Notes: generated from the letters alone by a model not told the origin. A DNA stretch of 64,000 nt from Candidatus Pacearchaeota archaeon (GCA_017608235.1 JAFCGI010000001.1:1423-65422); one strand, 5' to 3'; shown: positions 36,755 to 63,643, counted from the first letter of the stretch. Numbers and translations: made by a program.

Positions 36755-37407
36755 TAAAAATAATTATTGATCATAGAGAAAAAAATGAAATTATTAATAT
36801 TTTAAAAAATTTAGAAAAGGGAGCTGAAATTGAAGTTAAAAATTTAAGTGTAGGAGATTTTATTTTAAGCAAGGATGTGGTTATTGAAAGGAAAACAATT
36901 AATGATTTTTTAAGTTCTTTAATAGATAAAAGATTATTTGAGCAAGCAAGGGAGCTAAAGCATAATTTTAAGAAACCATTATTTTTAATTGAGGGTAATT
37001 TAGAAGAAATTTATAATATTAGAGATATAAATGAAAATGCTATTAGAGCTGCAATGCTTTCTTTGATTTTAGATTTTGAAATTCCTTTTTTATTTTCAAC
37101 TAATATCTTGGATAGTGCTAAAATTTTGATAACTATTGCTAGAAGGGAGCAGATTCAAAAAAATAAAGAAATTAGTTTAAGAGGAAGTAAAATTGCATAT
37201 ACTATGCCTCAAATGCAGCAATATTTTGTTGAAGGGTTGCCTTTAGTAGGTCCTAATTTAGCTAAATTGCTTTTAAAAAAGTTTAAAACCCCTAAAAAAA
37301 TAGTAAATGCTAAACTTGAAAAGTTGAAAAAAGTTGAAAAAATTGGAGATAAAAAAGCAAAATTAATTAGAGATATATTAGATTTAGAATATAATGAAAA
37401 TAACTAA
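36751..37407 (+). CDS. ERCC4/XPF-type nuclease with a C-terminal HhH2 (the nuclease portion of Hef), a separate ORF
   Basis: The ERCC4 motif appears as VGDFIL...ERKTINDF. The C-terminal HhH reads VEGLPLVGPNLAKLLL. Its ATGA overlaps the helicase ORF stop. Confidence 0.8.
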   Translation: MIKIIIDHREKNEIINILKNLEKGAEIEVKNLSVGDFILSKDVVIERKTINDFLSSLIDKRLFEQARELKHNFKKPLFLIEGNLEEIYNIRDINENAIRAAMLSLILDFEIPFLFSTNILDSAKILITIARREQIQKNKEISLRGSKIAYTMPQMQQYFVEGLPLVGPNLAKLLLKKFKTPKKIVNAKLEKLKKVEKIGDKKAKLIRDILDLEYNENN

Positions 37408-37726: not shown

Positions 37727-38104
37727 CTCTCACACCTTTATTTCTTATGGAGTTAATTTATTATTAATTTTAGTTTTATTTAACACACCTTTATTTCTTA
37801 TGGAAATATATAATTTATATTATAATATCATTTTTTGAAGTTTCCATAGGAAATTTATTTTTATTAATTTTAATTATATTTTAATTATATTATATAATAT
37901 ATATTATTATTTGCAATATAGTAAATAATTATTTTATTATTTAAAAATATTTAATTATATTTTGAATATTCTATTATTTTTTGAAAGAGTTTTTTCCAAT
38001 GGAAATGTAGGTCAGAGGGTCTTTTTAAATAATTATTTTAATTTTTTAGTAATTATATTCTAGAGTATATAAATTATTAATAAACCTTTGTTTCTTATGC
38101 ACTT
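37727..38104. promoter_or_regulatory. Probable chromosomal replication origin (oriC): an AT-rich unwinding region flanked by ORB-like and repeated elements, immediately upstream of orc1/cdc6
   Basis: It is a 378-bp non-coding stretch. The 37860..37990 portion is >90% A+T. It carries an ORB-like element at 37994..38021 and a dyad TTTCCATAGGAAA at 37841..37853. Three copies of ACCTTT(A/G)TTTCTTATG lie at 37731, 37784, and 38083. The adjacent orc1-dp1-dp2 arrangement matches the arrangement known from Pyrococcus. Confidence 0.65.
37994..38021 (+). promoter_or_regulatory. Origin recognition box (ORB)-like element
   Basis: TTCCAATGGAAATGTAGGTCAGAGGGTC matches the ORB consensus TTCCAnTGGAAA followed by a G-string. 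This is the established Orc1 binding site. Confidence 0.6.
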
Positions 38105-38110
38105 TTGGAT

Positions 38111-39316
38111 ATGAGACAGAGAGCATTAAATGATTATTTTGAGAGTTTCTTAGAAAAGGAAACTATATTTGAAGATAAGAAAGTTCTACAACAAAAATAT
38201 ATACCTAATTTAATATTACATAGGGAACAACAAGTTGATATTTTGGCACATATTTTGGCACCAGTTTTAAGAAAAGACAAACCATCTAATGTGTTTTTGT
38301 ATGGTAAAACCGGAACTGGAAAAACATTATGTAGTAATTATATATGTGATAAATTAAAAGAAGTAGCAGATAAGAAAAATATTCCTTTAAAAATTATATA
38401 TGTTAATTGCAAATTGAAAAAAGTTTGTGATACAGAATATAGAGTTGTTTCTTATCTTGCTAGAAGTATGGGTGTTAATGTACCTAGCACTGGTTTGCCA
38501 ACAGATGAAATATATAATTTGTTTTTGAGGGAAGTTGAGAAAGAAGAAAGTATAATTTTATTAATTTTAGATGAAATTGATCATTTAGTTAATAAAGCTG
38601 GTGATGAAATTTTATATAATCTTACAAGAATTAATTCAGAATTATCAAAATCTGAGTTATCAGTTATTGGAATTTCAAATGATGTTAGATTTATAGAAAA
38701 TATAGATCCAAGAGTTAAAAGTTCTTTAAATGAGGAAGAAGTTATTTTTCCACCATATAATGCAATTGAATTAAAAGATATTTTAAGAAAAAGAGCAGAA
38801 TTTGCTTTTAAGAAGGGAAGTATAAAAGATGGTGTTCTAGAAAAATGTGCTGCTTATGCAGCAAGGGAACATGGTGATGCTAGAAGGGCTTTGGATTTAT
38901 TAAGGGTTGCTGGTGAGATTTCAGAAAGATTAGGAGCTAGTTTTGTAGATGCAACACATATTGACTTAGCAGAAGAAAAAATAGAAAAAAATAGAATTTT
39001 AGAGATTGTTAGAACGCAACCAAGACAATCTCAGGCAGTATTATATTCTATTTTGTTATTATTAAAAAATAAAAGTGAAAGTGTTGAGACTGGTGAAATA
39101 TTTGAAAGATATAAAGAGGTTTGCATACAAGCAGGTCAAAATATATTAACACAAAGAAGGATTTCTGATTTAATCTCAGAGTTAGATATGCTTGGATTGA
39201 TAAATGCTAAAGTTATTAGCAAAGGAAGATATGGTAGGACAAGAGATATTTATGTGGCAATACCAGATTCTATAATTGATAAAGTTAGAGATAGTTTGAT
39301 AAGTGATCTAACTTAA
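38111..39316 (+). CDS. orc1: Orc1/Cdc6 replication initiator
   Basis: It has the AAA+ Walker A (LYGKTGTGKT), Walker B (ILDEIDHL), and a C-terminal winged helix. I set the start at the ATG at 38111, because the ORF-track start is a TTG. A TATA-like sequence TATATAAAT sits about 40 nt upstream. Confidence 0.95.
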   Translation: MRQRALNDYFESFLEKETIFEDKKVLQQKYIPNLILHREQQVDILAHILAPVLRKDKPSNVFLYGKTGTGKTLCSNYICDKLKEVADKKNIPLKIIYVNCKLKKVCDTEYRVVSYLARSMGVNVPSTGLPTDEIYNLFLREVEKEESIILLILDEIDHLVNKAGDEILYNLTRINSELSKSELSVIGISNDVRFIENIDPRVKSSLNEEEVIFPPYNAIELKDILRKRAEFAFKKGSIKDGVLEKCAAYAAREHGDARRALDLLRVAGEISERLGASFVDATHIDLAEEKIEKNRILEIVRTQPRQSQAVLYSILLLLKNKSESVETGEIFERYKEVCIQAGQNILTQRRISDLISELDMLGLINAKVISKGRYGRTRDIYVAIPDSIIDKVRDSLISDLT

Positions 39317-44338: not shown

Positions 44339-44375
44339 ACCTTTTAGAAAAGGTATTTATAAAAAAATTGAAGAA

Positions 44376-44485
44376 AACAACCTTCTTTAGGAAAGAAGCT
44401 TGACCAAGAAAGGAGAAGTTATGAAAATGAAACAACCTTCTTTAGGAAAGAAGCTTGACCAAGAAAGGAGAAGTTATGAAAATAA
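44376..44485 (+). repeat. Perfect or near-perfect 55-bp tandem duplication (2 copies) of the RBS plus start region of the downstream gene
   Basis: Copy 1 at 44376..44430 and copy 2 at 44431..44485 both read AACAACCTTCTTTAGGAAAGAAGCTTGACCAAGAAAGGAGAAGTTATGAAAAT. Each carries an AGGAG RBS and an ATGAAAAT start. Only copy 2 is in frame with the long ORF. Confidence 0.8.
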
Positions 44486-47234: not shown

Positions 47235-47497
47235 TTTATTAAATGAATTTTAATTATGTTAATAAAGATTTAGTTTAGTATAGATAATAAAAACTATACT
47301 TAATATGAGTGAGCTTGTTAATAACAAACACACTACACAAGTTTAGTTTAGTCTCAATTATTTGATAAGAAAAAAAGAGATGATTCAGAGATAATAAAAA
47401 ATTACTGGAACAATTAAACAGGATTGCAAATTCTCTATAATTAATAAAGAATAGTATATAGGATATGCATGATTTTGTAATTTTGTTAAATGAATGT

Positions 47498-48748
47498 TTA
47501 CTTAGATATCAGCCATTTCCATAAAGGTATATAGTTTATCCCATCCTCATATTTTTCAAGATCTTTTGTTATGATTGTCAATTTAGCAGTTTTATATTTC
47601 TGCTGAAATTCTAATAGACTTTCTATTTCTCTCTTATGTATTTTGTTAGTATAAGTAACATTTATTGCAGTTAAATGATTATCTTTCTTCTTAACTACAA
47701 AATCTACTTCTTTTTTTCCTCTCCAGAAATAAACATCTTCTCCATGTCTTTTGAGTTCTATTAAAACAGCATTTTCTGCGAGCTGTCCAAGATCATCTGA
47801 AAATTTAAATGAGATAGCATTTCTTAAGCCAGTATCTATAGAATAGCATTTTATATCTTTTTTAAGCTGAGTTTTAACTTTCCATGAAAAATAATTTATT
47901 TTGAACAAGAGAAAAACTTCTTCAAAATAAGGAATATATTTTTTAACAGTTTCATAATGCAGGTTTAATGCTCTTGCAATACTATTGTATGAAAAAGGTG
48001 AGGATATATTTGTCATTAAGTAATATCCTATCTGCTTAACAGTTTCTGAATCTGAATTAAATCTAGAAGTTATATCTCGTGAAAGAATATCATTATATAA
48101 CTCAACTAAAATAGATTTAGAAGTTAGTGAATCTGCATTAATGGTTTCAGGAAATCCTCCAGATTTAAGATAAATTTCAAGAAGATGAATAATTCTTTCT
48201 CGTTTTGAAATCTGTTTAGGATTAATGATTTTATGATATTTTAAAAACTCTTTGAATGAAAAAGGAGTAACAATCGTTGTGAGATGTCTGCCAGTTAGCG
48301 TTTTTCCTATGTCTCTTGAAATTAAAGAAGCAGAAGAACCAGAAACAAATATTTGTTTAAATATATTCCTATCATAAAAAGTTCTTATTATTTTTTCCCA
48401 GTTTTTAATATTTTGAATTTCATCAAGAAAAACATAAGAAATATCAGGATTAATTTGTAGAGATATTTTTATTGCTTCCTCAAGATCAAGCAATTCAGGA
48501 TCATCAAAGTTAAGATATAATATATCTTTGGGGTTAATGTTTTTTTCAATCAAGCTTGAAATTATTTGATATATTAAAACAGTCTTCCCAGAACGTCTAA
48601 CTCCAATTACATCTTTAATATGTTTAGTCTTAATACTATCTATTAATCCAGATAAATAAATTCGATCAATGCCAGTAACTTTTTTGAGGCTACCTGGTGT
48701 TTCCCACCAAACATTCCATTTTTTAATTGCTTTATTCATAATATTCAA
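47498..48748 (-). CDS. AAA+ ATPase with a DUF4143 domain (COG1373 family)
   Basis: It has a P-loop (GVRRSGKT), Walker B (VFLDEIQ), and C-terminal DUF4143-like segments. Confidence 0.7.
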   Translation of the reverse strand: MNIMNKAIKKWNVWWETPGSLKKVTGIDRIYLSGLIDSIKTKHIKDVIGVRRSGKTVLIYQIISSLIEKNINPKDILYLNFDDPELLDLEEAIKISLQINPDISYVFLDEIQNIKNWEKIIRTFYDRNIFKQIFVSGSSASLISRDIGKTLTGRHLTTIVTPFSFKEFLKYHKIINPKQISKRERIIHLLEIYLKSGGFPETINADSLTSKSILVELYNDILSRDITSRFNSDSETVKQIGYYLMTNISSPFSYNSIARALNLHYETVKKYIPYFEEVFLLFKINYFSWKVKTQLKKDIKCYSIDTGLRNAISFKFSDDLGQLAENAVLIELKRHGEDVYFWRGKKEVDFVVKKKDNHLTAINVTYTNKIHKREIESLLEFQQKYKTAKLTIITKDLEKYEDGINYIPLWKWLISK

Positions 48749-48835
48749 AGTTATTCTTTATTTATAAGAGTTTCTGTTATAGTGTAAGATAAATATACTT
48801 TTATTATCACACATATGTAATATTATTTAAAAATA

Positions 48836-48990
48836 ATAAAAAACAACTACAAAAATTAATGATCCATTGCATGAATTCTTCGTGTTCCTGTTAAAAGATC
48901 TAGAAGTCAATAGCTGAGGTAGTAATTAAGACTAGGAATCCTATAGTGCTAGAGAAATAGAATGTGAAATCTGCTAAAAGTAATAATAAT
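48836..48990 (-). pseudogene. Degenerate duplicate of the 3' end (the last ~50 codons) of the DUF112/TctA-like membrane-protein gene
   Basis: The 48836..48990 stretch aligns at about 80 to 85% identity to 49985..50145 (AAAAAACAACTACAA-AATTAATGATCC-ATTGCATGAATTCT...GAGAAATAGAATGT...). It is not in an intact ORF. Confidence 0.6.
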
Positions 48991-49075
48991 TAACATATGT
49001 TAAAAATATTTAACGATCAAAATGTTTATAAATAATGTTAATTAAAATTAACATATGTTAAAAATATTTAACGAT
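48990..49075 (+). promoter_or_regulatory. Two copies of a 28-bp element carrying the perfect palindrome TTAACATATGTTAA. Copy 2 overlaps the start codon of the HTH-nucleotidyltransferase gene. It is a putative autoregulatory operator.
   Basis: TTAACATATGTTAAAAATATTTAACGAT occurs at 48990..49017 and again at 49048..49075, the second copy carrying the ATG at 49055. The 14-bp cores at 48990..49003 and 49048..49061 are perfect dyads. Confidence 0.5.
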
Positions 49076-49564
49076 TTAGAACTCTTTTTTATTGATAGCT
49101 ACAGACGCATCAATATAAGAGAATATGCTAGATTAAAAAATATAAGCCCACCATCAGCATCTAAACTGCTCAAGATGTTTGAAAAAGAAGGCTTACTTGT
49201 TAGAGAAGAAGATAAGAGATATATTAATTATTTTGCCAACAAAAATAGCAGACAGTTTGTGGAGCTCTCAAAGATTTATTGGTTTTTACAGTTAAAGAAA
49301 ACTGGGCTATTAGATCATATTGAAAAAGAATTAGTTATTCAAGTATGTGTTTTGTTTGGTTCATTTTCTAAGGCAGAAATTAAAAAAGAGTCAGACATAG
49401 ATTTAGCAATATTTACACCATCCAAGAAAGCTATAAATTTAGAAAAATTTGAACGAAAATTAAAGCGAAAGATACAGTTGTTTGTATTTAAGAATAGAGA
49501 GGAAATTAGTAAAGAGTTGTTGAATAACATACTAAATGGATTTATTCTTTTAGGAGGGTGGTAG
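49055..49564 (+). CDS. HTH plus minimal nucleotidyltransferase (MNT) domain protein, the antitoxin-type partner of a HEPN/MNT module
   Basis: An N-terminal wHTH (REYARLKNISPPSASKLLKMFEKEGLL) is followed by a pol-beta-type NTase motif, GSFSKAEIKKESDIDLAIF. Confidence 0.6.
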   Translation: MLKIFNDLELFFIDSYRRINIREYARLKNISPPSASKLLKMFEKEGLLVREEDKRYINYFANKNSRQFVELSKIYWFLQLKKTGLLDHIEKELVIQVCVLFGSFSKAEIKKESDIDLAIFTPSKKAINLEKFERKLKRKIQLFVFKNREEISKELLNNILNGFILLGGW

Positions 49565-49565
49565 T

Positions 49566-49973
49566 ATGGATTGGATAGAGTGTAATAAGAAACTATTAGT
49601 AAAAAATATTAAAGTTGACAAGAACCTTATTAGTTCACTAGTTAAATCTTCTTCTAAGAGACTTAGTTCTCAGGCACTATTAGAATTAGATGATCTTACT
49701 GCAACTTCTAAGATTAGCTTAACTTATGAAGCTTTAAGAGAGCTGCTAGAAGCTTTAGCTGTATCTAAAGGCTTTAAAATTTACAATCATGAATGTTATA
49801 CTGCTTTTTTAAAAGAAAAGTTAAGCAAGTTTGATTTAGCAAAGGAATTTGATACTTTTAGAAAAATAAGAAATGCAATTAACTACTATGGCAAGGATCT
49901 AACAACAGAGGAAGCAAAAGAAATTCTAACTAATATGTTACAGATTATAAATAAGATAAAGTCTTTATTATGA
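49566..49973 (+). CDS. HEPN-like domain protein, the partner of the MNT gene. The Rx4-6H motif appears degenerate.
   Basis: At 135 aa it is all-alpha and sits immediately downstream of the MNT gene with a 1-nt gap, the typical MNT-HEPN arrangement. The candidate motif FRKIRNAINYYG lacks the His. Confidence 0.45.
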   Translation: MDWIECNKKLLVKNIKVDKNLISSLVKSSSKRLSSQALLELDDLTATSKISLTYEALRELLEALAVSKGFKIYNHECYTAFLKEKLSKFDLAKEFDTFRKIRNAINYYGKDLTTEEAKEILTNMLQIINKIKSLL

Positions 49974-49975
49974 TA

Positions 49976-51172
49976 TTATAAATAGTAAAAAACAACTACA
50001 AGAATTAATGATCCCATTGCATGAATTCTATGTGTTCCTGTTAGAGGTGCAAGAAGGCCGATAGCAGATGCTGTAATTAAGATTAGTATGCCTTTAAAAT
50101 TTGAGAAATAGAATGTAAGCGCTGCTAGGAATAAGATAATTATTATGGATATTTTTTGATAGCTTATTTTATGAATATAATTTGCAAATAGTTTTCCAAA
50201 GTTTAAAGTTAGGATGATTGCAATTCCTAGTGCAATGGTTGCGGAAAGAAGCAAGATTATGAATTCTTGTTGAGAGATGTTTATTATTTGTTTGAGTACT
50301 GTCATGGTTCCATTTCTGGCTTTGTTTATTGCAAATAATGTTGTGAGGGTGAAGAAAGCTGCAGCAGTATTTATTCCGCCCATTATTGTTAAGAAACTTT
50401 CTTGGTTTTTGAATTTAGTAAATCCTTGGCTTATGATTGTTGCTTGTGCAGCACCGATTCCAGGAAATATGCTTACAAATAAAGATGAGAAACTTGATTT
50501 AATTAAGTCTGAAATTTTTGGAAATCTAGCATTTGAAGTTAGAGTTTGTTTAGGAATTTTTGTATGAGATTTAATGCTGATTAATAATGTGGAAATACCA
50601 AATAAACCAGAGAATAATGGAAATAATGGTTCTTGGATATTTATATGATTAAGTACAAGAAGTCCAAGGATTCCAGATAACAGGAAGATGATAGATGCCC
50701 AGATTTTATTTTTAAGAGTTGGTTCTTTTAGAATAAACAAGATTGAAAGTATTATCAGAAGAGGTGCAATTATTTTTGCAAGGTGTAAGTAGGTTTCATT
50801 TAGATAGAAATATATTAGTAAGATTAGAGGCAGGCTGAATAGAAAAGTTCCTAGTCCACCAAGTATTGTTAGTTTAAGTGCATGATAGCCTTTGCCATCT
50901 AGTAGAAATTTGTGTCCTGGAAGAACTCCGAGAGCAGTAGCTGGTTCTGGTGCACCAAGAAATATGCTTGGAATAAAGTCAAGAAAGCTATGAACTACCA
51001 ACATTACAATTAGCATTGAAGCGATCTCTAAATTTGTAAAGTAATTAGAAAGCTTGGATATGCTGGCAAGTGCAAGTATAGAAATGGTATTTGTATGTAT
51101 TCCAGGAATTAAGCCTGAAATGATTCCTGCAAGACAACCTAGAAATATTAAAGTTAGGAGCATTTTATACAA
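49976..51172 (-). CDS. DUF112/TctA-like integral membrane protein
   Basis: It has about 11 TM helices. The repeated GxxPG(I/A) loops (GLIPGIH, FPGIGAAQA) are typical of TctA-family proteins. Confidence 0.5.
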   Translation of the reverse strand: MYKMLLTLIFLGCLAGIISGLIPGIHTNTISILALASISKLSNYFTNLEIASMLIVMLVVHSFLDFIPSIFLGAPEPATALGVLPGHKFLLDGKGYHALKLTILGGLGTFLFSLPLILLIYFYLNETYLHLAKIIAPLLIILSILFILKEPTLKNKIWASIIFLLSGILGLLVLNHINIQEPLFPLFSGLFGISTLLISIKSHTKIPKQTLTSNARFPKISDLIKSSFSSLFVSIFPGIGAAQATIISQGFTKFKNQESFLTIMGGINTAAAFFTLTTLFAINKARNGTMTVLKQIINISQQEFIILLLSATIALGIAIILTLNFGKLFANYIHKISYQKISIIIILFLAALTFYFSNFKGILILITASAIGLLAPLTGTHRIHAMGSLILVVVFYYL

Positions 51173-52849: not shown

Positions 52850-54496
52850 ATGAAATCTTCTAAAGAAATCTTAGATAGTGCAGAATCTTTTTTGGAGACT
52901 GCTGATAGTTATGTTATTTTAGATAAGCCAAGAGTTAATTTACTTAGTTATGATCCATCCATACAAAGTTTATCTTTAAATTATATTAGAAGTAAGTATC
53001 ATTTCTTTTTGAAAACTGTGGAACGGTCTAGAGAACAGCAACTAGATGAAAGTTTATTTAATCAATTTTTAGCAGATATTGCAGTATCAAGAGGAGATCT
53101 TGCTGTATTTGATAGAGGCCATATTCATTTTAAACTTAATTGTACTAGAGTTGGTACGAATGATATATTAAGGCATTATAGTATGAGATTTTTTCAGACA
53201 GGTCAAAGAAAGCAAATAGATTTGAATGTTCTTGATTCTGAAGATATATCTCAAAGTATTAGATATTTTTTGCCGCCTGAATGGGTTAAAGCTAGAGATC
53301 TAGCAGAGGAATTTAATTCTGCTATGAGTTATGTTGCACATTTAGTTAAACATGCAATAGATTTAGGAATGCCATCAGATCAAGCAAGATATATTATTCC
53401 TAATGCAGCAACTACTACTTTGGAAATGAGTGGTAGTTTGAGAAGCTTTTTTTCTTATGTTGGTTTAAGAGCTTGTGAACAAGCGCAGTTTGAGAATCAA
53501 TTTTTATCAGAGAAAGTGGCTAAGAAGCTCAAGGAAATATTGCCAGACCTTACCCAAAAACTTGGACCTAGATGCGTGTATGATCCTAGATGCAGAGAAG
53601 GAAAAAATTCTTGCGGTAAAATAAAAGAGAAAAGAGATTTGTTTGTTGGAGATGGTTCTGGTTTAGAGTATGTTATTAAGAGAGCTCAGATGCAAATAGA
53701 TAGTATTGATGAAATAGAATTTAATAATCAAGGATTTTTAAGCAATCTTTCTGATGCTTATAACGAGTATGTAAGTCTTGAGGAATCTAATGAGTTGCCA
53801 TTAGTTGAACTTGAAGCAAGATTTAATTCTGGAATATCTAATTTAGAAGAGTTTACAGCGCAGCTTGCGAAAAATACATTTAAAAGGTATACTGGAAAGA
53901 CTTTTGCATCTGATGATAAATTAACTATTGAACAAGTAGCAAATATTTGTAGAAATATAGTTAAAGCAGGACATTATGGAGCATTAGGACATCAGCATCT
54001 TAGCTATGATACTAAGATTTCTAGAGTTATGCTCCAAAAATTTGCAAGGCATCATTCTTTAGTTTTGATGGCATCTAGCCAACATCATAGTATTCATGCT
54101 AATTTTGAATATATTATGCCACCAATGTGGGAAAAATTAGGATTAGGAACAGAATTCCATACTATTGTTAGGTATTTAAATAATCTTTATACTAGAGCTA
54201 TGGATGCAGGAATTCCAAGAGATCAAGCAAGATATTGTCTGCCTACTTGTGCTACAACAAATCTTATGATCTCAGCATCTCCAAGATCTTTATTTTCTTT
54301 AGCAGCTCAGAGGACTTGTCCAAGTAATAGTTGGGAGGAAAGAGAAATAGTTTCTATGATAGTAGATGATGCAAGAGAAAGATATTCAAATCTTTTTTAT
54401 TATCTAGGACCTAAGTGTTTACTAAAACTTTGTGGGGCTAAGTGTGAATATGAGGATGAGGTTAGGAATAAGTACTTAGTGGATGGCGATGAGTGA
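52850..54496 (+). CDS. Tandem-duplicated ThyX-fold protein (two fused flavin-dependent thymidylate synthase-like domains). The RHR/SxRY motifs are degenerate in both halves.
   Basis: Half 1 reads GMPSDQARYIIPNAATTTLEMSGSLRSFFSYVGLRACEQAQFENQ and half 2 reads GIPRDQARYCLPTCATTNLMISASPRSLFSLAAQRTC. Both align to the ThyX core ([45 protein letters not shown]). The RHR-like positions read RHYSMRFFQTGQRKQ in half 1 and RHHSLVLMASSQHHS in half 2. Confidence 0.65.
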   Translation: MKSSKEILDSAESFLETADSYVILDKPRVNLLSYDPSIQSLSLNYIRSKYHFFLKTVERSREQQLDESLFNQFLADIAVSRGDLAVFDRGHIHFKLNCTRVGTNDILRHYSMRFFQTGQRKQIDLNVLDSEDISQSIRYFLPPEWVKARDLAEEFNSAMSYVAHLVKHAIDLGMPSDQARYIIPNAATTTLEMSGSLRSFFSYVGLRACEQAQFENQFLSEKVAKKLKEILPDLTQKLGPRCVYDPRCREGKNSCGKIKEKRDLFVGDGSGLEYVIKRAQMQIDSIDEIEFNNQGFLSNLSDAYNEYVSLEESNELPLVELEARFNSGISNLEEFTAQLAKNTFKRYTGKTFASDDKLTIEQVANICRNIVKAGHYGALGHQHLSYDTKISRVMLQKFARHHSLVLMASSQHHSIHANFEYIMPPMWEKLGLGTEFHTIVRYLNNLYTRAMDAGIPRDQARYCLPTCATTNLMISASPRSLFSLAAQRTCPSNSWEEREIVSMIVDDARERYSNLFYYLGPKCLLKLCGAKCEYEDEVRNKYLVDGDE

Positions 54497-57426: not shown

Positions 57427-59190
57427 ATGAATATTAAAGAAATTTTTAATCATAATAATAGGATTTTTGTGGTTGCAGAGATAGCTGGTGCGCATGATGG
57501 TTCTGTTGAAACCATGAAGAATTTAATTAAGGTTGCTTCTGATTCTGGTGTTAATGCTGTTAAATTTCAGATTTTTAGAGCAAATAAACTTGTGGTTAAA
57601 GATCATCCTAAGTATGCTTCTTTTAAACAGAAAGAATTTTCTAAAGAACAATGGCTAGACATTTCAGAATATGCTAAGAGTTTTGGCTTATCTATTTTTG
57701 CAGATGTTTTTGATAGAGAAAGTTTAGATATTGCAGAAGAATTTGGGGCAGAAGCGTATAAAATACATTCTAGCATAATTTCAGATGTTTTTTTACTTAG
57801 AGACATAGCTAAGACAAGAAAAACAATTTTATTGTCTGTTGGGGGGTCTAAATATATAGAGATAAAAAAAGCATTATCTATTTTTAAAGATAATAATAAG
57901 ATATTGGTTGCAGGATATCAGAATTTTCCAACTAAGATTGAGGATTCTAATCTTGCACTAATTGATTATTTGAAGAAAGAATTTAAGTGTCCTATAGGTT
58001 ATGCAGACCATTGTGATGCTGAGACAAGCATGGCTATGATTTTACCCCTTTTAGCGGTTGTGAAGGGGGCTTGTTTAATAGAAAAACATATCACGCTTGA
58101 TCGATCTTCAAAAGGTACTGATTATTATTCTTCTTTAAACCCTTCTGAAATAAAAAATTTGGTTAAGAATATAATGGAAACTAGAAAGACAATTGGTAAG
58201 AGCAAACTTGATTCTTTTTCAGAAGATGAAGAAAAATATCGTCAAAATATGAAGAAATTTATAGTGTCTTTTAGGAATATTAGGAAAGGAGAGATTATTT
58301 CTTTGGATATGTTGGATTTTAAAAGAACTACAAAACTAGGATTATTACCAAATGAAGCAGACAAGTTAATTGGTAAACAAAGTATAAGAGATATTAAAGA
58401 AGATGAAATTATTAGTTTACAAGATGTAGAAAATAATGTTGCTATTCTTATTGCTGTTAGAATGAAATCTACAAGGCTGCCAAAGAAAGCATTACAAGTT
58501 ATCGAAGGACAAACTTTAATTGAGCATTTAATTGATAGAATGAAACAATGTAAACATGCAAATCATGTTATTTTATGTACATCTATACATCCAGATGACA
58601 GGATTTTGTTAGATATAGCTAAGAAGAAGGACATATTTTATTTTGTTGGTAATGAAAAAAATGTTATGAAGCGTTTTTTAGGTGCTGCTGAAAAGGTTAA
58701 AGCAGATATTATAGTTAGAGTTACAGGGGATAATCCACTTACTTCTCCATATTTTATTGATAGTGCAATAAAACACCATCTTAAGGCAGGAGCAGATTAT
58801 ACATATACTACTGATCTGCCCCAGGGAACTAAAGGAGAAGTTATTTCTGTTTCTGCTTTGAAAAAGGCACATGAATTGGCAGAGGACCCTAATTTTAGTG
58901 AATATATGACTTGGTATTTTACAGATAACCCAAATTTTTTTAAGATAGAAAAAATACTTATTGATGAAGATATGAAGAGGCCTAGTTATAGATTAACTGT
59001 TGATACTCCAGAAGATTTAGAATTAATTAAGAAAATATATGGAAAATTATATGAGCATGGACAGATTATTCCATTGAAAGCAGTTATTAAGTTTTTAGAT
59101 GAAAATCCAAATCTTTTGAAAATTAATGCAAATATTAAAAGCAAGGATGTTAAAGATAAAGTAAATGTAAGATTAAGATGGTTAAAATAA
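57427..59190 (+). CDS. Fusion protein: nonulosonic-acid synthase (NeuB/PseI/LegI family, with SAF domain) fused to a PF02348 cytidylyltransferase (SpsF/PseF-like CMP-sugar synthetase)
   Basis: Residues 1 to about 340 form a NeuB TIM barrel (VVAEIAGAHDGSVETMKNLIKVASDSGVNAVKFQ) with a SAF domain (RNIRKGEIISLDMLDFKR). Residues about 345 to 587 form the cytidylyltransferase (AILIAVRMKSTRLPKKAL..., VTGDNPL). Confidence 0.75.
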   Translation: MNIKEIFNHNNRIFVVAEIAGAHDGSVETMKNLIKVASDSGVNAVKFQIFRANKLVVKDHPKYASFKQKEFSKEQWLDISEYAKSFGLSIFADVFDRESLDIAEEFGAEAYKIHSSIISDVFLLRDIAKTRKTILLSVGGSKYIEIKKALSIFKDNNKILVAGYQNFPTKIEDSNLALIDYLKKEFKCPIGYADHCDAETSMAMILPLLAVVKGACLIEKHITLDRSSKGTDYYSSLNPSEIKNLVKNIMETRKTIGKSKLDSFSEDEEKYRQNMKKFIVSFRNIRKGEIISLDMLDFKRTTKLGLLPNEADKLIGKQSIRDIKEDEIISLQDVENNVAILIAVRMKSTRLPKKALQVIEGQTLIEHLIDRMKQCKHANHVILCTSIHPDDRILLDIAKKKDIFYFVGNEKNVMKRFLGAAEKVKADIIVRVTGDNPLTSPYFIDSAIKHHLKAGADYTYTTDLPQGTKGEVISVSALKKAHELAEDPNFSEYMTWYFTDNPNFFKIEKILIDEDMKRPSYRLTVDTPEDLELIKKIYGKLYEHGQIIPLKAVIKFLDENPNLLKINANIKSKDVKDKVNVRLRWLK

Positions 59191-60569
59191 CAGTATATAT
59201 AACATCTTATAATTATGGAAATTATTTAGATAAAGCAATAAAGAGTGTTCTTGATCAAACTTACCAGGATTTTGAATTATTGATTTTTGATGATGGATCT
59301 ACTGATAATACTAAAGAGATCCTAAAGAAATATGAGGATCATTCAAAGATTAAAATTATCTATCAAGAAAACAAAGGTATGCCTAAGACGTGTAATAGAG
59401 CTTTACAAATGTCTAATGGTGAATATATTATACGTTTAGATGCAGATGATTATTTTGATGAAAATATATTGTTAGTTCTTTCTAATGTTTTAGATATAAG
59501 ATCTAATGTATCTTTAGTATATCCAGATTATTATGAGATTGATTCTAGTGGAAATGTTATTGGATTAGTTAGAAGAAAAAAAATTGTTGAAGAAGCTAAT
59601 TTATTAGATCTTCCAGCACATGGTGCTGGTACTATGATTAGGAAAGACTGTTTAAAAGATCTAGGAGGATATAATGAGACTATTAGTTGCCAAGATGGTT
59701 ATGATTTATGGGTAAGATTTATTCAAAAATATAAGCCAGAGAATGTTAATCTGCCTTTGTTTTATTATAGAAAGCATTCTGATAGTTTAACAACAAATTC
59801 TAAAAAAATATTAGAAACAAGGAAAGATATTAAGAATAAATTTGTTGAAGATAATGGTGTAAAGAAGAAGACATGTATAATTATACCTATTAGAAGAAAA
59901 TCTGTAATATGTGAAAATCTTCCATTAAAGATTATTAATGGTAAGCGGCTAATGGAGTATGCTATTGATGAGGCTGTTAAGACTAGTGTGGATAAAGTTG
60001 TTGTGACTACAGAAGATGAAGTAATATCAGAAATTGCTAAATCTAAGGATATTAATGTAATTATGAGGCCTAAGGAGTTAGGAGAGTTTAATATTCCTAT
60101 AGAACCAACAATTTTATTTGTTTTAGAGCATCTTTCTAAGAAAGAACAGTTTGTTCCAGATATTGTAGGGGTTTTTTATATTACTTCTCCATTAATTAAG
60201 AGTAAACACCTTAGAGAGGCTATTAATACATTGATCATTTATGATGCTGATAGCGTGATTAGCGTTAAGGAAAATGCAAGGTTGCATTATATACATGATA
60301 AATTTGGATTAAAACCATTATTTAACAAGAGAGCTTTAAAACAAGAAAGAGATTTTTTATATGAAGAGAGTGGAGGATTTGTATTTTCCAAAAAAGATAT
60401 AATAAATAAAGAAAATATGGTTGGTAAAAGTATTAGCCATGTTATTTTGACTGATGAAGAAGGTATAGATATTGAAGATAAATTCACTTACTGGCTTGTT
60501 GAACAAATATTAAAAAATAGATCTGTGATTGAAAAAATGAATAATCAAAAAATAGCTAGAGGTTACTAG
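59178..60569 (+). CDS. Fusion protein: GT2 family glycosyltransferase fused to a PF02348 acylneuraminate-type cytidylyltransferase
   Basis: The N-terminal GT2 region has ITSYNYGNYLDKAIKSVLDQTY, FDDGSTD, and a DxD motif (RLDADD). The C-terminal cytidylyltransferase region reads CIIIPIRRKS...LPLKIINGKRLMEYAID. Confidence 0.7.
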   Translation: MVKITVYITSYNYGNYLDKAIKSVLDQTYQDFELLIFDDGSTDNTKEILKKYEDHSKIKIIYQENKGMPKTCNRALQMSNGEYIIRLDADDYFDENILLVLSNVLDIRSNVSLVYPDYYEIDSSGNVIGLVRRKKIVEEANLLDLPAHGAGTMIRKDCLKDLGGYNETISCQDGYDLWVRFIQKYKPENVNLPLFYYRKHSDSLTTNSKKILETRKDIKNKFVEDNGVKKKTCIIIPIRRKSVICENLPLKIINGKRLMEYAIDEAVKTSVDKVVVTTEDEVISEIAKSKDINVIMRPKELGEFNIPIEPTILFVLEHLSKKEQFVPDIVGVFYITSPLIKSKHLREAINTLIIYDADSVISVKENARLHYIHDKFGLKPLFNKRALKQERDFLYEESGGFVFSKKDIINKENMVGKSISHVILTDEEGIDIEDKFTYWLVEQILKNRSVIEKMNNQKIARGY

Positions 60570-60570
60570 T

Positions 60571-61590
60571 ATGATTCAAGATTATATAGAGAGAGATGGA
60601 GCATTTATTATTGCAGAAATAGGTGGAAATCATGAAGGAGATTTTGAGTATGCTAAAAAATTACTTTTAGATGTTGCTAAATCTGGTGCGCATGCTGTTA
60701 AATTTCAAATATATACTGGAGATAAGATTGTTAGTAAGGTAGAGAATCCTGGTAGGAATGAGCACTTTAAGAAATTTGAATTATCTGATGAACAGTTTAT
60801 TGAGCTAGCTAGACTGGCCAAAGAGAATAATATTTTATTTATGGCCTCTTTTTGGGATATTGATGCAATTGAGAGATTTGATCCATATATAGAAATTAAT
60901 AAGATTGGATCTGGAGATTTAACAAATTATCTTATATTGGAGATTCTTGCGAAGAAGAATAAACCACTTATTTTATCTACAGCTATGTCAACAATTGAAG
61001 AGATTAAGGATGCTATTGAATTTATTAATAAATCAAATCCAGTGTTGGTTAAAGAAAATAAGCTTTTTTTAATGCATTGTGTTGCTATGTATGGAGATCC
61101 TAAAGGAGAGTATGCTAATCTTTTATCTATTAAAAAACTACAAGATGAATTTCCAAATATTATGATTGGTTATTCAGATCATACTAAAGGAATTTATGCT
61201 TGTGAGTTAGCTATTGCTATGGGAGCAAGAATTATTGAAAAGCATTTTACAGATAATAAATCCAGAGAATTTAGGGATCATCATGTTTCTGCAGATTTAG
61301 AAGATATGAAATTGTTAATTGAAAAAGCTAAACAAGTGAATGTTTTACTTGGTAAATATGAGAAGGAGCCTATAAGCGCTGTGGAAACAGTTGAAAGAAT
61401 AAAGGAATTTAGGAAGGCAGTTTATCTAAAAAAAGATGTGCCTGCTGGTACGATTTTAACTGAGGATATTTTAATTACATTAAGGCCTAATAAAGGCATA
61501 GATGCTCGAAAGTTTTATGAAGTTGTAGGTAAAAAACTGAATAAAAACAAGAGTGCTTTTGAAGCTATTTATAAGAGTGATTTAGAATGA
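60571..61590 (+). CDS. NeuB-family nonulosonic acid synthase (N-acetylneuraminate/pseudaminate/legionaminate synthase), paralog 2
   Basis: It has FIIAEIGGNHEGDFEYAKKLLLDVAKSGAHAVKFQ and a C-terminal SAF domain (KDVPAGTILTEDIL). Confidence 0.85.
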   Translation: MIQDYIERDGAFIIAEIGGNHEGDFEYAKKLLLDVAKSGAHAVKFQIYTGDKIVSKVENPGRNEHFKKFELSDEQFIELARLAKENNILFMASFWDIDAIERFDPYIEINKIGSGDLTNYLILEILAKKNKPLILSTAMSTIEEIKDAIEFINKSNPVLVKENKLFLMHCVAMYGDPKGEYANLLSIKKLQDEFPNIMIGYSDHTKGIYACELAIAMGARIIEKHFTDNKSREFRDHHVSADLEDMKLLIEKAKQVNVLLGKYEKEPISAVETVERIKEFRKAVYLKKDVPAGTILTEDILITLRPNKGIDARKFYEVVGKKLNKNKSAFEAIYKSDLE

Positions 61591-61895
61591 AATCAATTAA
61601 ACTACATCTTGGCTGTGATTTATATTATAAAGCTATAGAGATAGGCAAGCTTAGTGGACCAGAGGATTTTTTTAATAAATTTAAAAATTCTGATCTTATT
61701 TTAGTTAATTTTATGAATATGTCTGACGAAGATGCATATAAGTTGTTATTAGAGGCTAATACAGAATTGATACTAGATCATTATAAAAATACTAATGGTA
61801 ATATAGAAGAGGCAAATAGATTGATACAACAATTTGCTGATCTTTATTCAGGAAAAATAATTAATTTTAGAGGATCTAGACATTATGATAAATAA
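61587..61895 (+). CDS. Hypothetical protein (102 aa) within the nonulosonic acid cluster
   Basis: It is an ORF with start and stop overlaps to its neighbours, which suggests it is co-transcribed. I saw no motifs. Confidence 0.3.
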   Translation: MKSIKLHLGCDLYYKAIEIGKLSGPEDFFNKFKNSDLILVNFMNMSDEDAYKLLLEANTELILDHYKNTNGNIEEANRLIQQFADLYSGKIINFRGSRHYDK

Positions 61896-62598
61896 GAATA
61901 ATTCCAAAATTATTGCGGTAGTTCCTGCTCGTGGAGGTAGTAAGGGAATTCCTAGAAAAAATATTAAATTATTAAAAGGCAAGCCGCTAATAACATATAC
62001 AATAGAAGCAGCAAAAAAGTCAAAATTAATTGATCGTATTATTGTTTCTACAGATGATGTAGAAATTGCAAATATTGCGAAAGAGTGTGGAGCAGAGATA
62101 CCTTTTCTTCGTCCAGAAGAATTAGCAAAAGATGATATAACTGATTTACCAGTATTGCAGCATGTTCTTAAATGGTTGATAGTTAATGAAGATTGCAATC
62201 CAGATTTAATGATATACCTTAGACCTACTGCACCCATTCGAGATCCAGAAGATATTGATAGGGCTGTTAAATTACTGATGGATAGTTCTGCAGATTCTTT
62301 AAGAAGTGTTAGTCTTGTTAAAGAACATCCATATTGGATGTTTAAGCTAGATGAGAACAATGTACTTGAGGCATTTAATAAAGACAATTCGATTAGAGAA
62401 TATCCTAGAAGGCAGCTTTTGCCAGACTTATATATAATAAATGGTAATATAGATATAGTAAGATCTAGGAATATAACTGATAATAAACTTTATGGTAAAA
62501 AAGTAATTGGTTTTAATATAGACCATGAAAAAGCTATTGATATAGATTCTCTTTTAGATTTTAAACTAGCGGAGTTTATATTAGGTAAAAATGATTAA
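61885..62598 (+). CDS. neuA: Acylneuraminate cytidylyltransferase (CMP-nonulosonic acid synthetase, NeuA-type)
   Basis: It has IIAVVPARGGSKGIPRKNIKLLKGKPLI and the other PF02348 motifs. Confidence 0.85.
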   Translation: MINKNNSKIIAVVPARGGSKGIPRKNIKLLKGKPLITYTIEAAKKSKLIDRIIVSTDDVEIANIAKECGAEIPFLRPEELAKDDITDLPVLQHVLKWLIVNEDCNPDLMIYLRPTAPIRDPEDIDRAVKLLMDSSADSLRSVSLVKEHPYWMFKLDENNVLEAFNKDNSIREYPRRQLLPDLYIINGNIDIVRSRNITDNKLYGKKVIGFNIDHEKAIDIDSLLDFKLAEFILGKND

Positions 62599-63643
62599 AA
62601 TTTCAGATAAATTTGTAGGTAAAGGACAACCTTGTTTTATTATAGCTGAAGCAGGAGTTAACCATAATGGGGATATAGAATTAGCTAAAAAACTAATTTT
62701 AGAGGCTGCTAGATCTGGTGCAGATGCTATAAAATTTCAGACTTTTTCTACAGATAATTTGATTGTTAGAGATGCGCCTAAGGCACAATATCAGAAGCAA
62801 ACAACATTGACTGAAGAATCCCAGTATGAAATGTTAAAAAAATTGGAATTAAATAAAGGACAATATAAAGAGCTTGTTGATTATGCTAATCACAATAAAA
62901 TAATCTTTCTCTCAACACCATATGATGAAGATAGTGTGGATCTTTTATATAGCTTAAATGTGCCAGCTTATAAAATTGCTTCTTGCGATTTAACTAATAT
63001 TCCTTTAATAGATCATATTGCTGATAAGAATAAACCTATTATTATTTCAACTGGTATGGCAACAATGGATGAAGTTGAAACTGCAGTATTACATATTAAA
63101 AAATATCATGATCATATTGTTTTATTACATTGTACTACCGAATATCCTACAAAATTAAAAGATGTTAATCTTCAGGCAATGATTGCTTTAAGAGAAAAGT
63201 TTGACTTACCTATAGGTTACTCAGATCATACAGATAGTTTTTTAGTTTCTTTAGCTGCAGTTTCATTAGGCGCGAATATTATTGAGAAACATTTTACGCT
63301 CGATAAATCTCTTTGGGGTCCAGACCATACGGCATCTGCAGATGTTGCAGAACTAGCAGCTTTAGTAAAATCAATACGGGATGTAGAATTATCTTTAGGA
63401 TCTTTTGATAAAAAGCCTACTAAAATTGAGTTAAAAAATAAAAAAGTTATGAGAAGAAGTATTTGTGCAAATAGAGATATTAAAGAAGGCGAGATTATTA
63501 GTAAGGATATGATATCTATTAAAAGACCAGGCATTGGATTAGAACCGAAGCATATCGCAGCGATTATAGGTAAAAAAATAAATAAAGATATAGCTAAAGA
63601 TAATTTTTTAACTAAAGATTATTTTAGGGAGAGAGAATTATGA
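62591..63643 (+). CDS. NeuB-family nonulosonic acid synthase, paralog 3
   Basis: It has FIIAEAGVNHNGDIELAKKLILEAARSGADAIKFQ and a SAF domain (RDIKEGEIISKDMISIKRPG). Confidence 0.85.
   Translation: MIKISDKFVGKGQPCFIIAEAGVNHNGDIELAKKLILEAARSGADAIKFQTFSTDNLIVRDAPKAQYQKQTTLTEESQYEMLKKLELNKGQYKELVDYANHNKIIFLSTPYDEDSVDLLYSLNVPAYKIASCDLTNIPLIDHIADKNKPIIISTGMATMDEVETAVLHIKKYHDHIVLLHCTTEYPTKLKDVNLQAMIALREKFDLPIGYSDHTDSFLVSLAAVSLGANIIEKHFTLDKSLWGPDHTASADVAELAALVKSIRDVELSLGSFDKKPTKIELKNKKVMRRSICANRDIKEGEIISKDMISIKRPGIGLEPKHIAAIIGKKINKDIAKDNFLTKDYFREREL

Follow-up and report, generated by a model that had tools for sequence, protein, structure and literature searches.

A nucleotidyltransferase and HEPN-fold gene pair bracketed by a duplicated transporter gene end in a DPANN archaeon

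The cassette and the duplicated gene end around it

The DNA analyzed here, referred to as the window, is a 64,000-nucleotide stretch from a Candidatus Pacearchaeota archaeon (GCA_017608235.1 JAFCGI010000001.1:1423-65422; positions are counted from its first letter), and our subject is a self-contained two-gene cassette of about 0.96 kb that abuts the 3' end of a membrane transporter gene. The first gene of the cassette (49055-49564, plus strand) encodes a 169-aa fusion of a winged helix-turn-helix (wHTH) to a minimal nucleotidyltransferase (MNT), a PDC-M05A or MntA-like subunit. The second (49566-49973) starts after a gap of 1 nt on the same strand and encodes a 135-aa HEPN-fold partner, the PDC-M05B subunit. 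The transporter gene, which we regard as the insertion target, lies on the minus strand (49976-51163) and encodes 395 aa from its ATG, or 398 aa from a TTG three codons upstream of it; a 395-aa database protein (P0001) is 100% identical. Its stop codon (49976-49978) is 2 nt from that of the partner gene, the two genes being on convergent strands. An earlier reading of this DNA, made from the sequence only, had called the transporter DUF112/TctA-like, and its Pfam match is indeed TctA (PF01970, 2.3e-52). The gene on the other side of the cassette (47498-48748, minus strand) likewise proved to be, by its Pfam matches to AAA_14 and DUF4143, the DUF4143 ATPase gene named in that reading.

The 3' end of the transporter gene is present twice. 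Its functional copy, identified by alignment and translation, is the end of the intact TctA gene (49966-50142, minus strand), and a degenerate copy in the same orientation lies on the far side of the gene pair (48818-48992, minus strand). The two align at 78% identity (131/168) with single-base indels, by both MAFFT and Smith-Waterman, and the solid part of the duplication runs from the stop codons (48827-48829 and 49976-49978) through 48992 and 50142, respectively. The local score of 148 compares with 23.8 ± 3.3 (maximum 42) in 500 shuffles (z of about 37), and no other place in the window scores above 31. The displaced copy comprises the last 55 codons, the stop codon and about 9 nt beyond it, and contains two frameshifts. 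Read over three frames of the minus strand it gives LLLLLADFTFYFSSTIGFLVLITTSAID, LLTGTRRIHAM and GSLIFVVVFYYF, to be compared with the genuine TctA C-terminus, ...IIILFLAALTFYFSNFKGILILITASAIGLLAPLTGTHRIHAMGSLILVVVFYYL. Because this three-frame translation matches the TctA C-terminus together with its stop codon, we regard it as a frameshifted pseudo-copy of the last 55 codons and refer to it below as the orphan.

The sequence-only reading had proposed a degenerate direct duplication of 155 bp that brackets exactly the gene pair, and had made its significance depend on a formal alignment of the flanks. That alignment places the similarity far above shuffled sequence, and the only features between the two copies are the promoter/operator region and the two genes of the pair. 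The duplication and the exact bracket are thus real, and only the coordinates then given for the copies (48836-48990 and 49985-50145) were slightly too narrow or shifted. A third, older copy of the TctA end, which would have implied serial insertions, was considered downstream of the ATPase gene (a 38-nt match of 47380-47417 to 48822-48859); it was rejected because its scores (65.5 and 48) are within the shuffle range.

Comparison with other genomes supports the view that the cassette is not ancestral beside TctA and was inserted at the 3' end of that gene. Three loci encoding TctA relatives (53%, 53% and 54% identical) keep the upstream order ThyX - (kinase/deaminase) - OB-fold - TctA, and in all three unrelated genes follow directly after the TctA stop codon with no PDC-M05 cassette. 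Loci without the cassette, for which the sequence-only reading had suggested looking, were found; the direct TctA-ATPase junction it had also named was not seen among these three relatives, all of which are distant. A scan of genome contigs with the TctA protein alone returned no relative. At 66-70% identity to their nearest homologues, which are found in quite different contexts, the cassette proteins have closer relatives than TctA does (54%). Composition is uninformative, since the GC content of the cassette (28%) is close to that of the window (29.5%), and a compositional anomaly was rejected.

Profile and structure comparisons agree on what the first gene encodes. The wHTH-MNT protein matches Polbeta (1.5e-9) and NTP_transf_2 (4.6e-7) above the Pfam cut-offs, with MarR and HTH_24 below theirs, and the PADLOC model PDC-M05A at 4.4e-16; its match to NCBIfam MntA_antitoxin (3.3e-8) is below the cut-off (33 vs 60 bits). 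It carries the GS-x(8-14)-DxD signature of minimal nucleotidyltransferases as GS-x10-DxD at residues 102-116, within the stretch FGSFSKAEIKKESDIDL (residues 101-117), and G102, S103, D114 and D116 are invariant in a family alignment of wHTH-MNT proteins. The AlphaFold2 (AF2) model (pLDDT 94.5) consists of an N-terminal MarR/ArsR-like winged helix half, with fold matches to the MarR, ArsR, IclR and RbkR winged helices, and a nucleotidyltransferase half with fold matches to HI0073 and the MntA antitoxins (7BXO, 8XEH). Pfam, PADLOC and the AF2 fold are thus at one with the HTH-MNT identity first proposed from the sequence.

The partner gene is more elusive at the sequence level. It matches the PADLOC model PDC-M05B (6.8e-7) and has 839 homologues, mostly from DPANN archaea and some of them labelled UPF0332. 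Pfam contains no credible match even at E<=10 (only DUF2096_N at E=0.02, below its cut-off), NCBIfam gave noise only, and a profile search against PDB sequences gave nothing below E=0.2. The AF2 model (pLDDT 97), on the other hand, has as its top Foldseek match the HEPN protein AF_0298 (2HSB, TM-score 0.75/0.80), followed by TT1696 (1UFB), the HepT toxins 7AE8 and 7BXO, and the HEPN domain of sacsin (3O10). The partner is therefore predicted to have a HEPN fold, and the MNT/HEPN-type label given to the pair is right at the fold level, with Pfam silent.

As had been noticed from the sequence, the partner lacks the Rx4-6H motif typical of HEPN proteins; its single histidine is H75. In place of that motif stands R102-N-x-x-N-Y-Y-G109 (here R102-N-A-I-N-Y107-Y108-G), which is invariant in 36 aligned partner homologues along with R58-E59, Y73-N74-H75-x-C77 and R99. 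Because RNxxNYYG is conserved across the whole family, the missing Rx4-6H motif does not reflect decay of this copy. The earlier suggestion that the partner is inactivated is thus not upheld, and the alternative of a different chemistry or role is tenable: the conservation argues for a site that would work with altered chemistry or in an altered role rather than for a dead gene. The family-wide replacement of a catalytic histidine by a tyrosine pair raises the question of how this HEPN protein acts.

With adjacent genes matching the PDC-M05A and PDC-M05B profiles, the pair is by sequence a member of PDC-M05, a PADLOC candidate family enriched in archaea. According to a 2026 survey, PDC-M05 comprises a nucleotidyltransferase and a HEPN protein, 59% of its instances are archaeal, and its antiviral role is unconfirmed (PMC12988326). 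The gene pair is therefore known and catalogued, as part of an uncharacterized family, whereas its operator and insertion signature appear to be undescribed. In the literature searched we found no description of a dual-coded operator with leaderless architecture or of recurrent bracketing by host 3' ends, and nothing specific on long target-site duplications or repeat-flanked toxin-antitoxin (TA) cassettes in archaea.

Promoter and operator of the cassette

For comparison, 160 cassette-bearing loci from species-representative genomes and metagenomes were collected and reduced to 106 non-redundant cassettes, 99 of which have enough upstream sequence. In the window, a putative archaeal TATA box, TTTATAAA (49025-49032, plus strand), begins 30 nt upstream of the MNT start codon. 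It is followed by a core operator (49037-49072, plus strand) made up of one GTTAA-N6-TTAAC palindrome (49037-49052), the dinucleotide AT, and the ATG with a second such palindrome (49057-49072) that lies inside MNT codons 1-6 (MLKIFN). An extra operator copy is present further upstream (48981-49017, plus strand). This copy repeats 49039-49075 over 37 nt with 95% identity and holds both the palindrome TTAACATATGTTAA (48990-49003) and another GTTAA-N6-TTAAC (48999-49014). A 28-bp unit with a 14-bp palindrome occurring twice, 58 bp apart, had been reported from the sequence, and this is what we find: TTAACATATGTTAA occurs exactly two times in the window (48990-49003 and 49048-49061), and the exact shared unit is 28 nt, extending to 37 nt at the lower identity. 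GTTAA-N6-TTAAC occurs three times in the 64 kb, all at the cassette promoter, compared with 0.13 occurrences expected.

The same layout recurs across the family, with the consensus AGAAA(A/G)ATTTATAAAC - 3-5 nt - GTTAA N6 TTAAC - AT - ATG TTA nnn AT(A) (A/T)TT AAC. Of the 99 cassettes, 81 have the upstream 16-bp palindrome with no more than one mismatch, and the intragenic one lies wholly within codons 1-6 in 87. The 14-bp palindrome, which is the junction of the two 16-bp sites, is found in 79/99. Codon usage over the intragenic site is strongly skewed: codon 2 is TTA in 93 of the 99 cassettes, although TTA accounts for 36% of leucine codons elsewhere in the same genes, and codon 6 is AAC in 80 of the 87 cassettes with asparagine there, although AAC accounts for 32% of asparagine codons elsewhere. 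The DNA is therefore constrained at these positions, and not the peptide alone.

In each of the 42 cassettes that match the strict pattern, the TATA-like box begins 30-32 nt ahead of the ATG, which puts its center about 26 nt upstream, the usual distance from an archaeal TATA box to the start of transcription. This fixed spacing implies a leaderless mRNA, and both the promoter assignment and the leaderless transcript of the cassette operon are inferred from it. An additional upstream operator copy is present in 14/99 cassettes. In L024 and L038, for example, it likewise lies upstream of the TATA box, and L038 keeps a second TATA-like box as well.

These features are what would be expected of an autoregulated archaeal operon, with a wHTH fold in the product, sites at fixed positions in 81-87 of the 99 cassettes, and codon constraint over the intragenic site. 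We propose that the wHTH-MNT protein represses its own operon at the predicted sites. The wHTH would bind the two 16-bp palindromes that abut the start codon, one upstream of it and one within codons 1-6, and the third site of the window, upstream of the TATA box, would clamp the promoter from both sides. The suggestion that the palindrome is an operator for the N-terminal HTH of the same protein has thus gained support from comparison, given sites in roughly 80-88% of the 99 cassettes, the codon constraint and the predicted N-terminal winged helix. A 12-codon decoy ORF had also been proposed here. The mini-ORF, MLKIFNDQNVYK*, is present (48997-49035, starting 2 nt later than the earlier description implied) and begins in the extra operator copy, but the decoy role does not hold; the mini-ORF is a by-product, because its ATG belongs to the palindrome and the extra operator copy is present in 14/99 cassettes. 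If bound as proposed, the operator would show with unusual clarity how the first six codons of a leaderless archaeal gene can double as a regulatory site, and it provides direct predictions for the widespread defense-candidate family PDC-M05.

Related brackets, their possible origin and the role of the pair

Brackets of this kind recur in other genomes. For each non-redundant cassette, the 300 nt on either side were compared flank against flank, and direct repeats scoring at least 60 were counted. Such repeats flank 9/85 cassettes compared with 3/369 control units bounded by genes, taken from the same loci and similar in size (odds ratio 14, Fisher p=2.6e-5); an earlier control with shifted windows had given 13/85 cassettes and 3/131. 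A further locus with a high flank score (L033) was left out of the bracket count, as it is a repeat-rich region that scores in the controls too. The repeats are host sequence (gene 3' ends, the 3' half of a tRNA-Val gene, or intergenic DNA), 47-175 bp long and 78-98% identical. Together with the cassette-free relatives of TctA, these recurrent brackets at unrelated targets support the earlier proposal of an insertion with duplication, or a capture by recombination.

Among the coding cases, the last 46 codons plus stop of a 1447-aa gene are repeated in L046 (147 bp, 87% identity), with an orphan that is still in frame over its 46 codons and begins 1-2 nt after the stop codon of the partner gene. 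In L137 the end of a convergent PfkB kinase gene is repeated (58 bp, 98% identity, 57/58); the insertion point precedes the stop by two codons, and PfkB acquires a new C-terminus from the cassette end (...KVNI* becoming ...KVEF*). The ends of an amino-acid-kinase (AA_kinase) gene (L122; 62 bp, 84%) and of an M24 peptidase gene (L048; 60 bp, 90%) are duplicated similarly. At the L146 locus (3312-4501) the repeat takes in the tRNA-Val(TAC) gene from its anticodon loop through its 3' end and 10 nt further (53 bp, 85%), and the repeats in L111, L076 and L121 (47-92 bp) are intergenic. The cassette is found in either orientation relative to the target gene, and all coding cases share one order along the target, with the intact gene end followed by the cassette, the orphan end and the original downstream DNA. 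Because the spacer that separates repeat from cassette ranges between 0 and about 70 nt, the mobile piece has no fixed ends; in the window, L046 and L137, the repeats come within 0-6 nt of the promoter and the stop codon of the partner gene. In L146, just the 1-kb cassette lies between the intact tRNA-Val(TAC) and its orphan 3' half, a footprint that is otherwise of the classic integrase type.

Two of the three control matches turned out to be other accessory cassettes with brackets of about 150 bp. In L143 (2171-3419), a Bro-N gene (2394-3227) lies between two copies, 86% identical, of the 147 bp that end an upstream 597-aa surface-protein gene, and an MNT-HEPN-like cassette follows this bracket directly. 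Since a Bro-N gene is bracketed in the same manner, the bracket is not specific to one cargo. In L152 (955-2778), genes for an HTH protein and a 261-aa protein (AbiE-like by eye, the second gene without a Pfam match) lie between direct repeats of about 150 bp that begin at the stop codon of a neighboring MNT-HEPN-like cassette.

Another arrangement was seen in L007 (4841-7500), which holds the closest relative of the cassette (70% identical partner), and in L008 (4209-7500). Here, a short GC-rich repeat, GCACTGCCGAGCGCAGCTCTAAA, with a TATA box after it, stands between successive small cassettes, and the two strains share sequence from the repeat onward with different cassettes upstream. These loci look like an integron-like array, with no integrase in view. 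Integron cassettes, which are attC-bounded and often encode TA pairs, do resemble the one in the window in being small promoter-bearing TA cassettes bounded by repeats. However, the GC-rich repeat of L007 and L008 is absent from the window, where the flanking repeats are the 3' end of host TctA coding sequence rather than attC-like sites, there is no IntI-like gene nearby, and no recombinase family was detected among open reading frames (ORFs) of at least 110 aa scanned at about 31-64 kb. The integron idea was accordingly dropped for the window. Rfam searches gave no match in the window, at the locus at a relaxed threshold, or in L007, L008, L046 or L137.

Our preferred reading, which we hold with modest confidence, is that the pair is a PDC-M05 TA cassette, arranged as a leaderless autorepressed operon, that was inserted at the TctA 3' end by homology-anchored recombination. 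For the route itself, recombination with a diverged donor that already held the gene end and the cassette, we consider the chances about even. DNA of a diverged relative bearing the TctA 3' end and the cassette would recombine through the shared TctA segment. It would enter either by a single Campbell-type crossover, after circularization of the fragment, or by homology-facilitated illegitimate recombination, and the incoming 3' end would displace the resident one rather than replace it. One copy would now be in the working TctA gene, and the other would be the orphan between the cassette promoter and the ATPase gene. An addictive TA cassette would resist repeat-driven pop-out, and whatever the route, this resistance to loss between repeats would let brackets last long enough to diverge.

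An orphan 3' fragment beyond the module, homologous to the end of the intact gene, is what 3'-end displacement would leave, and the same geometry is seen in the window, L046, L137, L122 and L048. It is also known from Rhs, contact-dependent inhibition (CDI) and type VI secretion system (T6SS) loci, where a module anchored in a conserved segment displaces the resident 3' end and leaves it as an orphan downstream (PMC5361080). The orphaned ends at Rhs and T6SS loci have been proposed to arise from homology-facilitated illegitimate recombination (PMC5361080). The displaced ends there are variable toxin tips with immunity genes in bacteria, whereas the cassette targets ordinary housekeeping genes and a tRNA, has homologous copies as its ends, carries a TA cargo and is found in archaea. 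The pattern of divergence provides a further indication. Pooled over six coding brackets, mismatches by codon position number 20/15/47, a bias with p=2e-5 against a uniform distribution and p=0.026 against an expectation of one decaying and one selected copy that is our own and approximate. The third-position excess suggests that much of the divergence arose under protein-level selection of both copies, and the pattern weakly favors homology-anchored displacement, or an element-borne gene end, over in-situ duplication. The in-frame L046 orphan and the variable spacers also speak for displacement, as does the result that no integrase or transposase was found between the repeats or among the ORFs of at least 110 aa scanned at about 31-64 kb.

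Several points weigh against the displacement reading. No donor, empty site or excised circle was seen, and with the nearest TctA relative only 54% identical the event cannot be reconstructed. In-situ duplication with decay is rejected only weakly (p of about 0.03, on a rough expectation), and the two frameshifts of the window orphan are real decay. The youngest case, L137, looks like a fresh target-site duplication, and the close abutment of the repeats to promoter and partner stop in three loci is tidier than random ends would be. Displacement also requires that the cassette already lay beside the same gene in the donor, which leaves its first arrival at unrelated targets unexplained. As for the cassette itself, its toxicity, nucleotidylation, DNA binding and transcription start are inferred, and a partner that lacks the HEPN catalytic histidine may be no RNase toxin.

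A possible but rather unlikely alternative is that the duplication was made in situ. A linear cassette would be joined to the ends of a staggered break, or to a replication intermediate (an uncut Okazaki flap, for instance), and fill-in would duplicate 47-175 bp of target, after which the orphan would decay and the working copy would stay under selection. This would amount to an undescribed DPANN insertion pathway. Its appeal is that a single kind of event covers many unrelated targets, the tRNA and intergenic DNA included. The near-identical L137 repeats fit it well, with their insertion two codons before the stop and a ...EF* end supplied by the cassette, as do the tight abutment in three loci, the frameshifts in the window orphan, and the like brackets around the Bro-N gene of L143 and the gene pair of L152. 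The third-position excess and the in-frame L046 orphan, however, fit divergence under selection better, and of about ten brackets just one exceeds 95% identity, although young events should dominate in deletion-prone genomes. Moreover, no enzyme is known to us whose staggered cuts are so long and so variable; those of transposases, casposases and Cas1-Cas2 give 2-40 bp. The cassette also differs from a transposon or insertion sequence in having two genes, neither encoding a transposase, together with variable spacers and repeats of 47-175 bp.

A broader version of the same idea, to which we give less credence still, is a general and undescribed DPANN route that inserts small accessory cassettes (TA, Bro-N, AbiE-like) at gene and tRNA 3' ends and duplicates 50-175 bp in the process. 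It would be a long and variable target-site duplication achieved without transposase or integrase, and may act on intermediates of replication or repair. The genomes of DPANN archaea are tiny, with few recognizable mobile-element enzymes and few known defense systems, and how they gain accessory genes is poorly understood. If such a route exists, MNT-HEPN-like cassettes would be its commonest visible cargo, since addiction blocks their loss through the repeats. The locus and its relatives provide a repeatable footprint of cassette gain, a 1-kb module with duplicated host 3' ends or a duplicated tRNA half around it. Whole genomes can be searched for this footprint, the divergence of the repeats gives a means of dating it, and it sets homology-anchored displacement against long target duplication as a testable contrast. 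If the duplications are ordinary recombination scars, the finding is a tidy annotation with no new mechanism.

The other element of our preferred reading is the nature of the pair. The best explanation we have is that the PDC-M05 cassette represents an archaeal branch of the MNT-HEPN (type VII-like) TA and defense-candidate modules. It resembles the HepT/MntA type VII systems (Shewanella SO_3166/3165 and the Aphanizomenon HEPN/MNT pair) in having an adjacent, co-directional GS-x10-DxD nucleotidyltransferase and small HEPN-fold protein, fold matches to 7BXO, 7AE8 and 8XEH across both subunits, and a conserved tyrosine at the HEPN motif. By analogy with HepT/MntA, the nucleotidyltransferase would modify and so control its HEPN partner, and any toxicity of the HEPN protein would be neutralized by MNT-mediated AMPylation of a tyrosine. 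The Y107/Y108 pair is the proposed site, corresponding to the HepT region of the catalytic histidine and the AMPylated tyrosine; we take the pair to fall at that histidine and, two residues on, at the modified tyrosine in the proteins of 7AE8 and 7BXO. Unlike HepT/MntA, the partner carries RNxxNYYG with no catalytic histidine family-wide and is unmatched by Pfam HEPN models, the nucleotidyltransferase has an N-terminal wHTH and falls below the NCBIfam MntA cut-off, and the host is a DPANN archaeon.

Rather less probable than a TA or defense role, to our minds, is that the pair is a regulated two-subunit nucleotidyltransferase of the HI0073/HI0074 or kanamycin nucleotidyltransferase type, in which the HEPN-like subunit would bind substrate and the wHTH would couple the state of the enzyme to transcription; the history of the insertion would be unaffected. 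The family-wide lack of the HEPN catalytic histidine is in keeping with such an enzyme, as is the best fold match of the nucleotidyltransferase half, HI0073, which comes from the two-protein nucleotidyltransferase HI0073/HI0074. Archaeal wHTH-enzyme fusions that bind their own promoter do exist (RbkR, 5TRD), and an MNT-HEPN fusion is unusually conserved in DPANN housekeeping contexts (PMC6393860). Yet both subunits match a family that was chosen by its association with defense islands (PMC12988326), and the cassette is found in differing genomic contexts, often beside other TA-like pairs, with a PDC-S01 gene adjoining it here. The lasting repeat-flanked copies are best explained by addiction, and the invariant tyrosine pair lies at the motif where MntA AMPylates HepT.

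It is improbable, finally, that the bracket was left by an integrative element with its own integrase, which brought along a substitute gene end and later lost everything except the TA pair, the pair then being a cis-mobilizable remnant between attL and attR. TA modules resist deletion, which fits such a history. The geometry is the same as that of prophage e14 in E. coli icd, where a C-terminal fragment (icdC) persists as a pseudogene beyond the insert and the gene is intact with a substitute end; the differences between icd and icdC are mostly conservative or synonymous (PMC13626634). The synonymous-biased divergence of the brackets would be expected of an element-borne gene end, and the tRNA-Val bracket of L146 is a classic integrase signature. 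But e14 is 15 kb long, has its own site-specific integrase and uses one target, whereas the cassette is 1 kb long, has no recombinase and is found at many unrelated targets. As in e14, direct repeats of the target 3' end are present; a recombinase gene was found neither between the repeats nor, among ORFs of the size and range scanned, in the flanks, though one of matching specificity may act in trans. Each unrelated target would need a separate specificity, and deletions would have to have ended at the att boundaries, on either side and independently, in several loci. IMG/VR viral contigs yielded no relative of the cassette, which also leaves a virus or plasmid vehicle without support.

That the duplication is a product of chance similarity or misassembly we consider very improbable: the window and every comparison locus are short-read metagenome assemblies of AT-rich genomes, but the z-score of the alignment and the match of its translation to the TctA C-terminus speak against chance, identities of 78-87% are too diverged for strain collapse, a false path would need reads that join the cassette end to mid-gene sequence, and the same geometry is seen in independent assemblies of different studies.

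Setting of the cassette in the window

The host of the window is a DPANN archaeon. The nearest TctA homologues are labelled Woesearchaeota, Nanoarchaeota or DPANN, the best being the 54% identical protein that comes after the 100%-identical self-match. The neighborhood consists of archaeal core genes (LonB, a split Hef, Orc1/Cdc6, PolD DP1 and DP2, a Cas4-like nuclease, phosphoribosyl pyrophosphate (PRPP) synthetase, thymidylate kinase and ThyX), the overall GC content is about 30%, and no tRNA or Rfam family was found in the 64 kb.

The ATPase gene next to the cassette matches the PADLOC candidate PDC-S01 (3.9e-107), and its start codon is 78 nt past the stop codon of the orphan TctA copy. 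It is context beside the cassette and outside the bracketed unit. With a PDC-S01 match directly beside a PDC-M05 cassette, the region constitutes a small two-system defense islet, which sits between TctA and an EamA transporter gene; both PADLOC matches indicate membership and not mechanism. PDC-S01 has been described as an ATPase fused to a PD-(D/E)XK domain (PMC12988326).

Several other features of the window were noted. A probable replication origin lies about 11 kb from the cassette, in an intergenic region of about 20% GC (37727-38104) immediately upstream of orc1/cdc6 (38105-39316); three CACACCTTTATTTCTTATGGA-like boxes (37731, 37784 and 38081) flank very AT-rich DNA there, and the genes for PolD DP1 and DP2 are located downstream. 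Between the PolD DP2 stop (44338) and the gene for the Cas4-like PD-(D/E)XK nuclease, a 54-nt segment is perfectly duplicated in tandem (44375-44428 and 44430-44483, within 44375-44484; 55 nt from start to start, 100% identity). This duplication looks very recent, and it takes in the ATGAAAAT start of the nuclease gene, giving that gene two candidate starts in different frames. The Hef homologue (35240-37407) comes in two pieces, a helicase ORF (35240-36754) that overlaps an ERCC4-HhH nuclease ORF (36751-37407), and in a relative (L001) the same helicase and ERCC4-HhH domains form a single 728-aa protein. ThyX (52850-54496) is an internally duplicated, two-domain protein of 548 aa, and the right end of the window (57427-63643) is occupied by a nonulosonic-acid sugar cluster with three NeuB-family paralogues and cytidylyltransferase genes.

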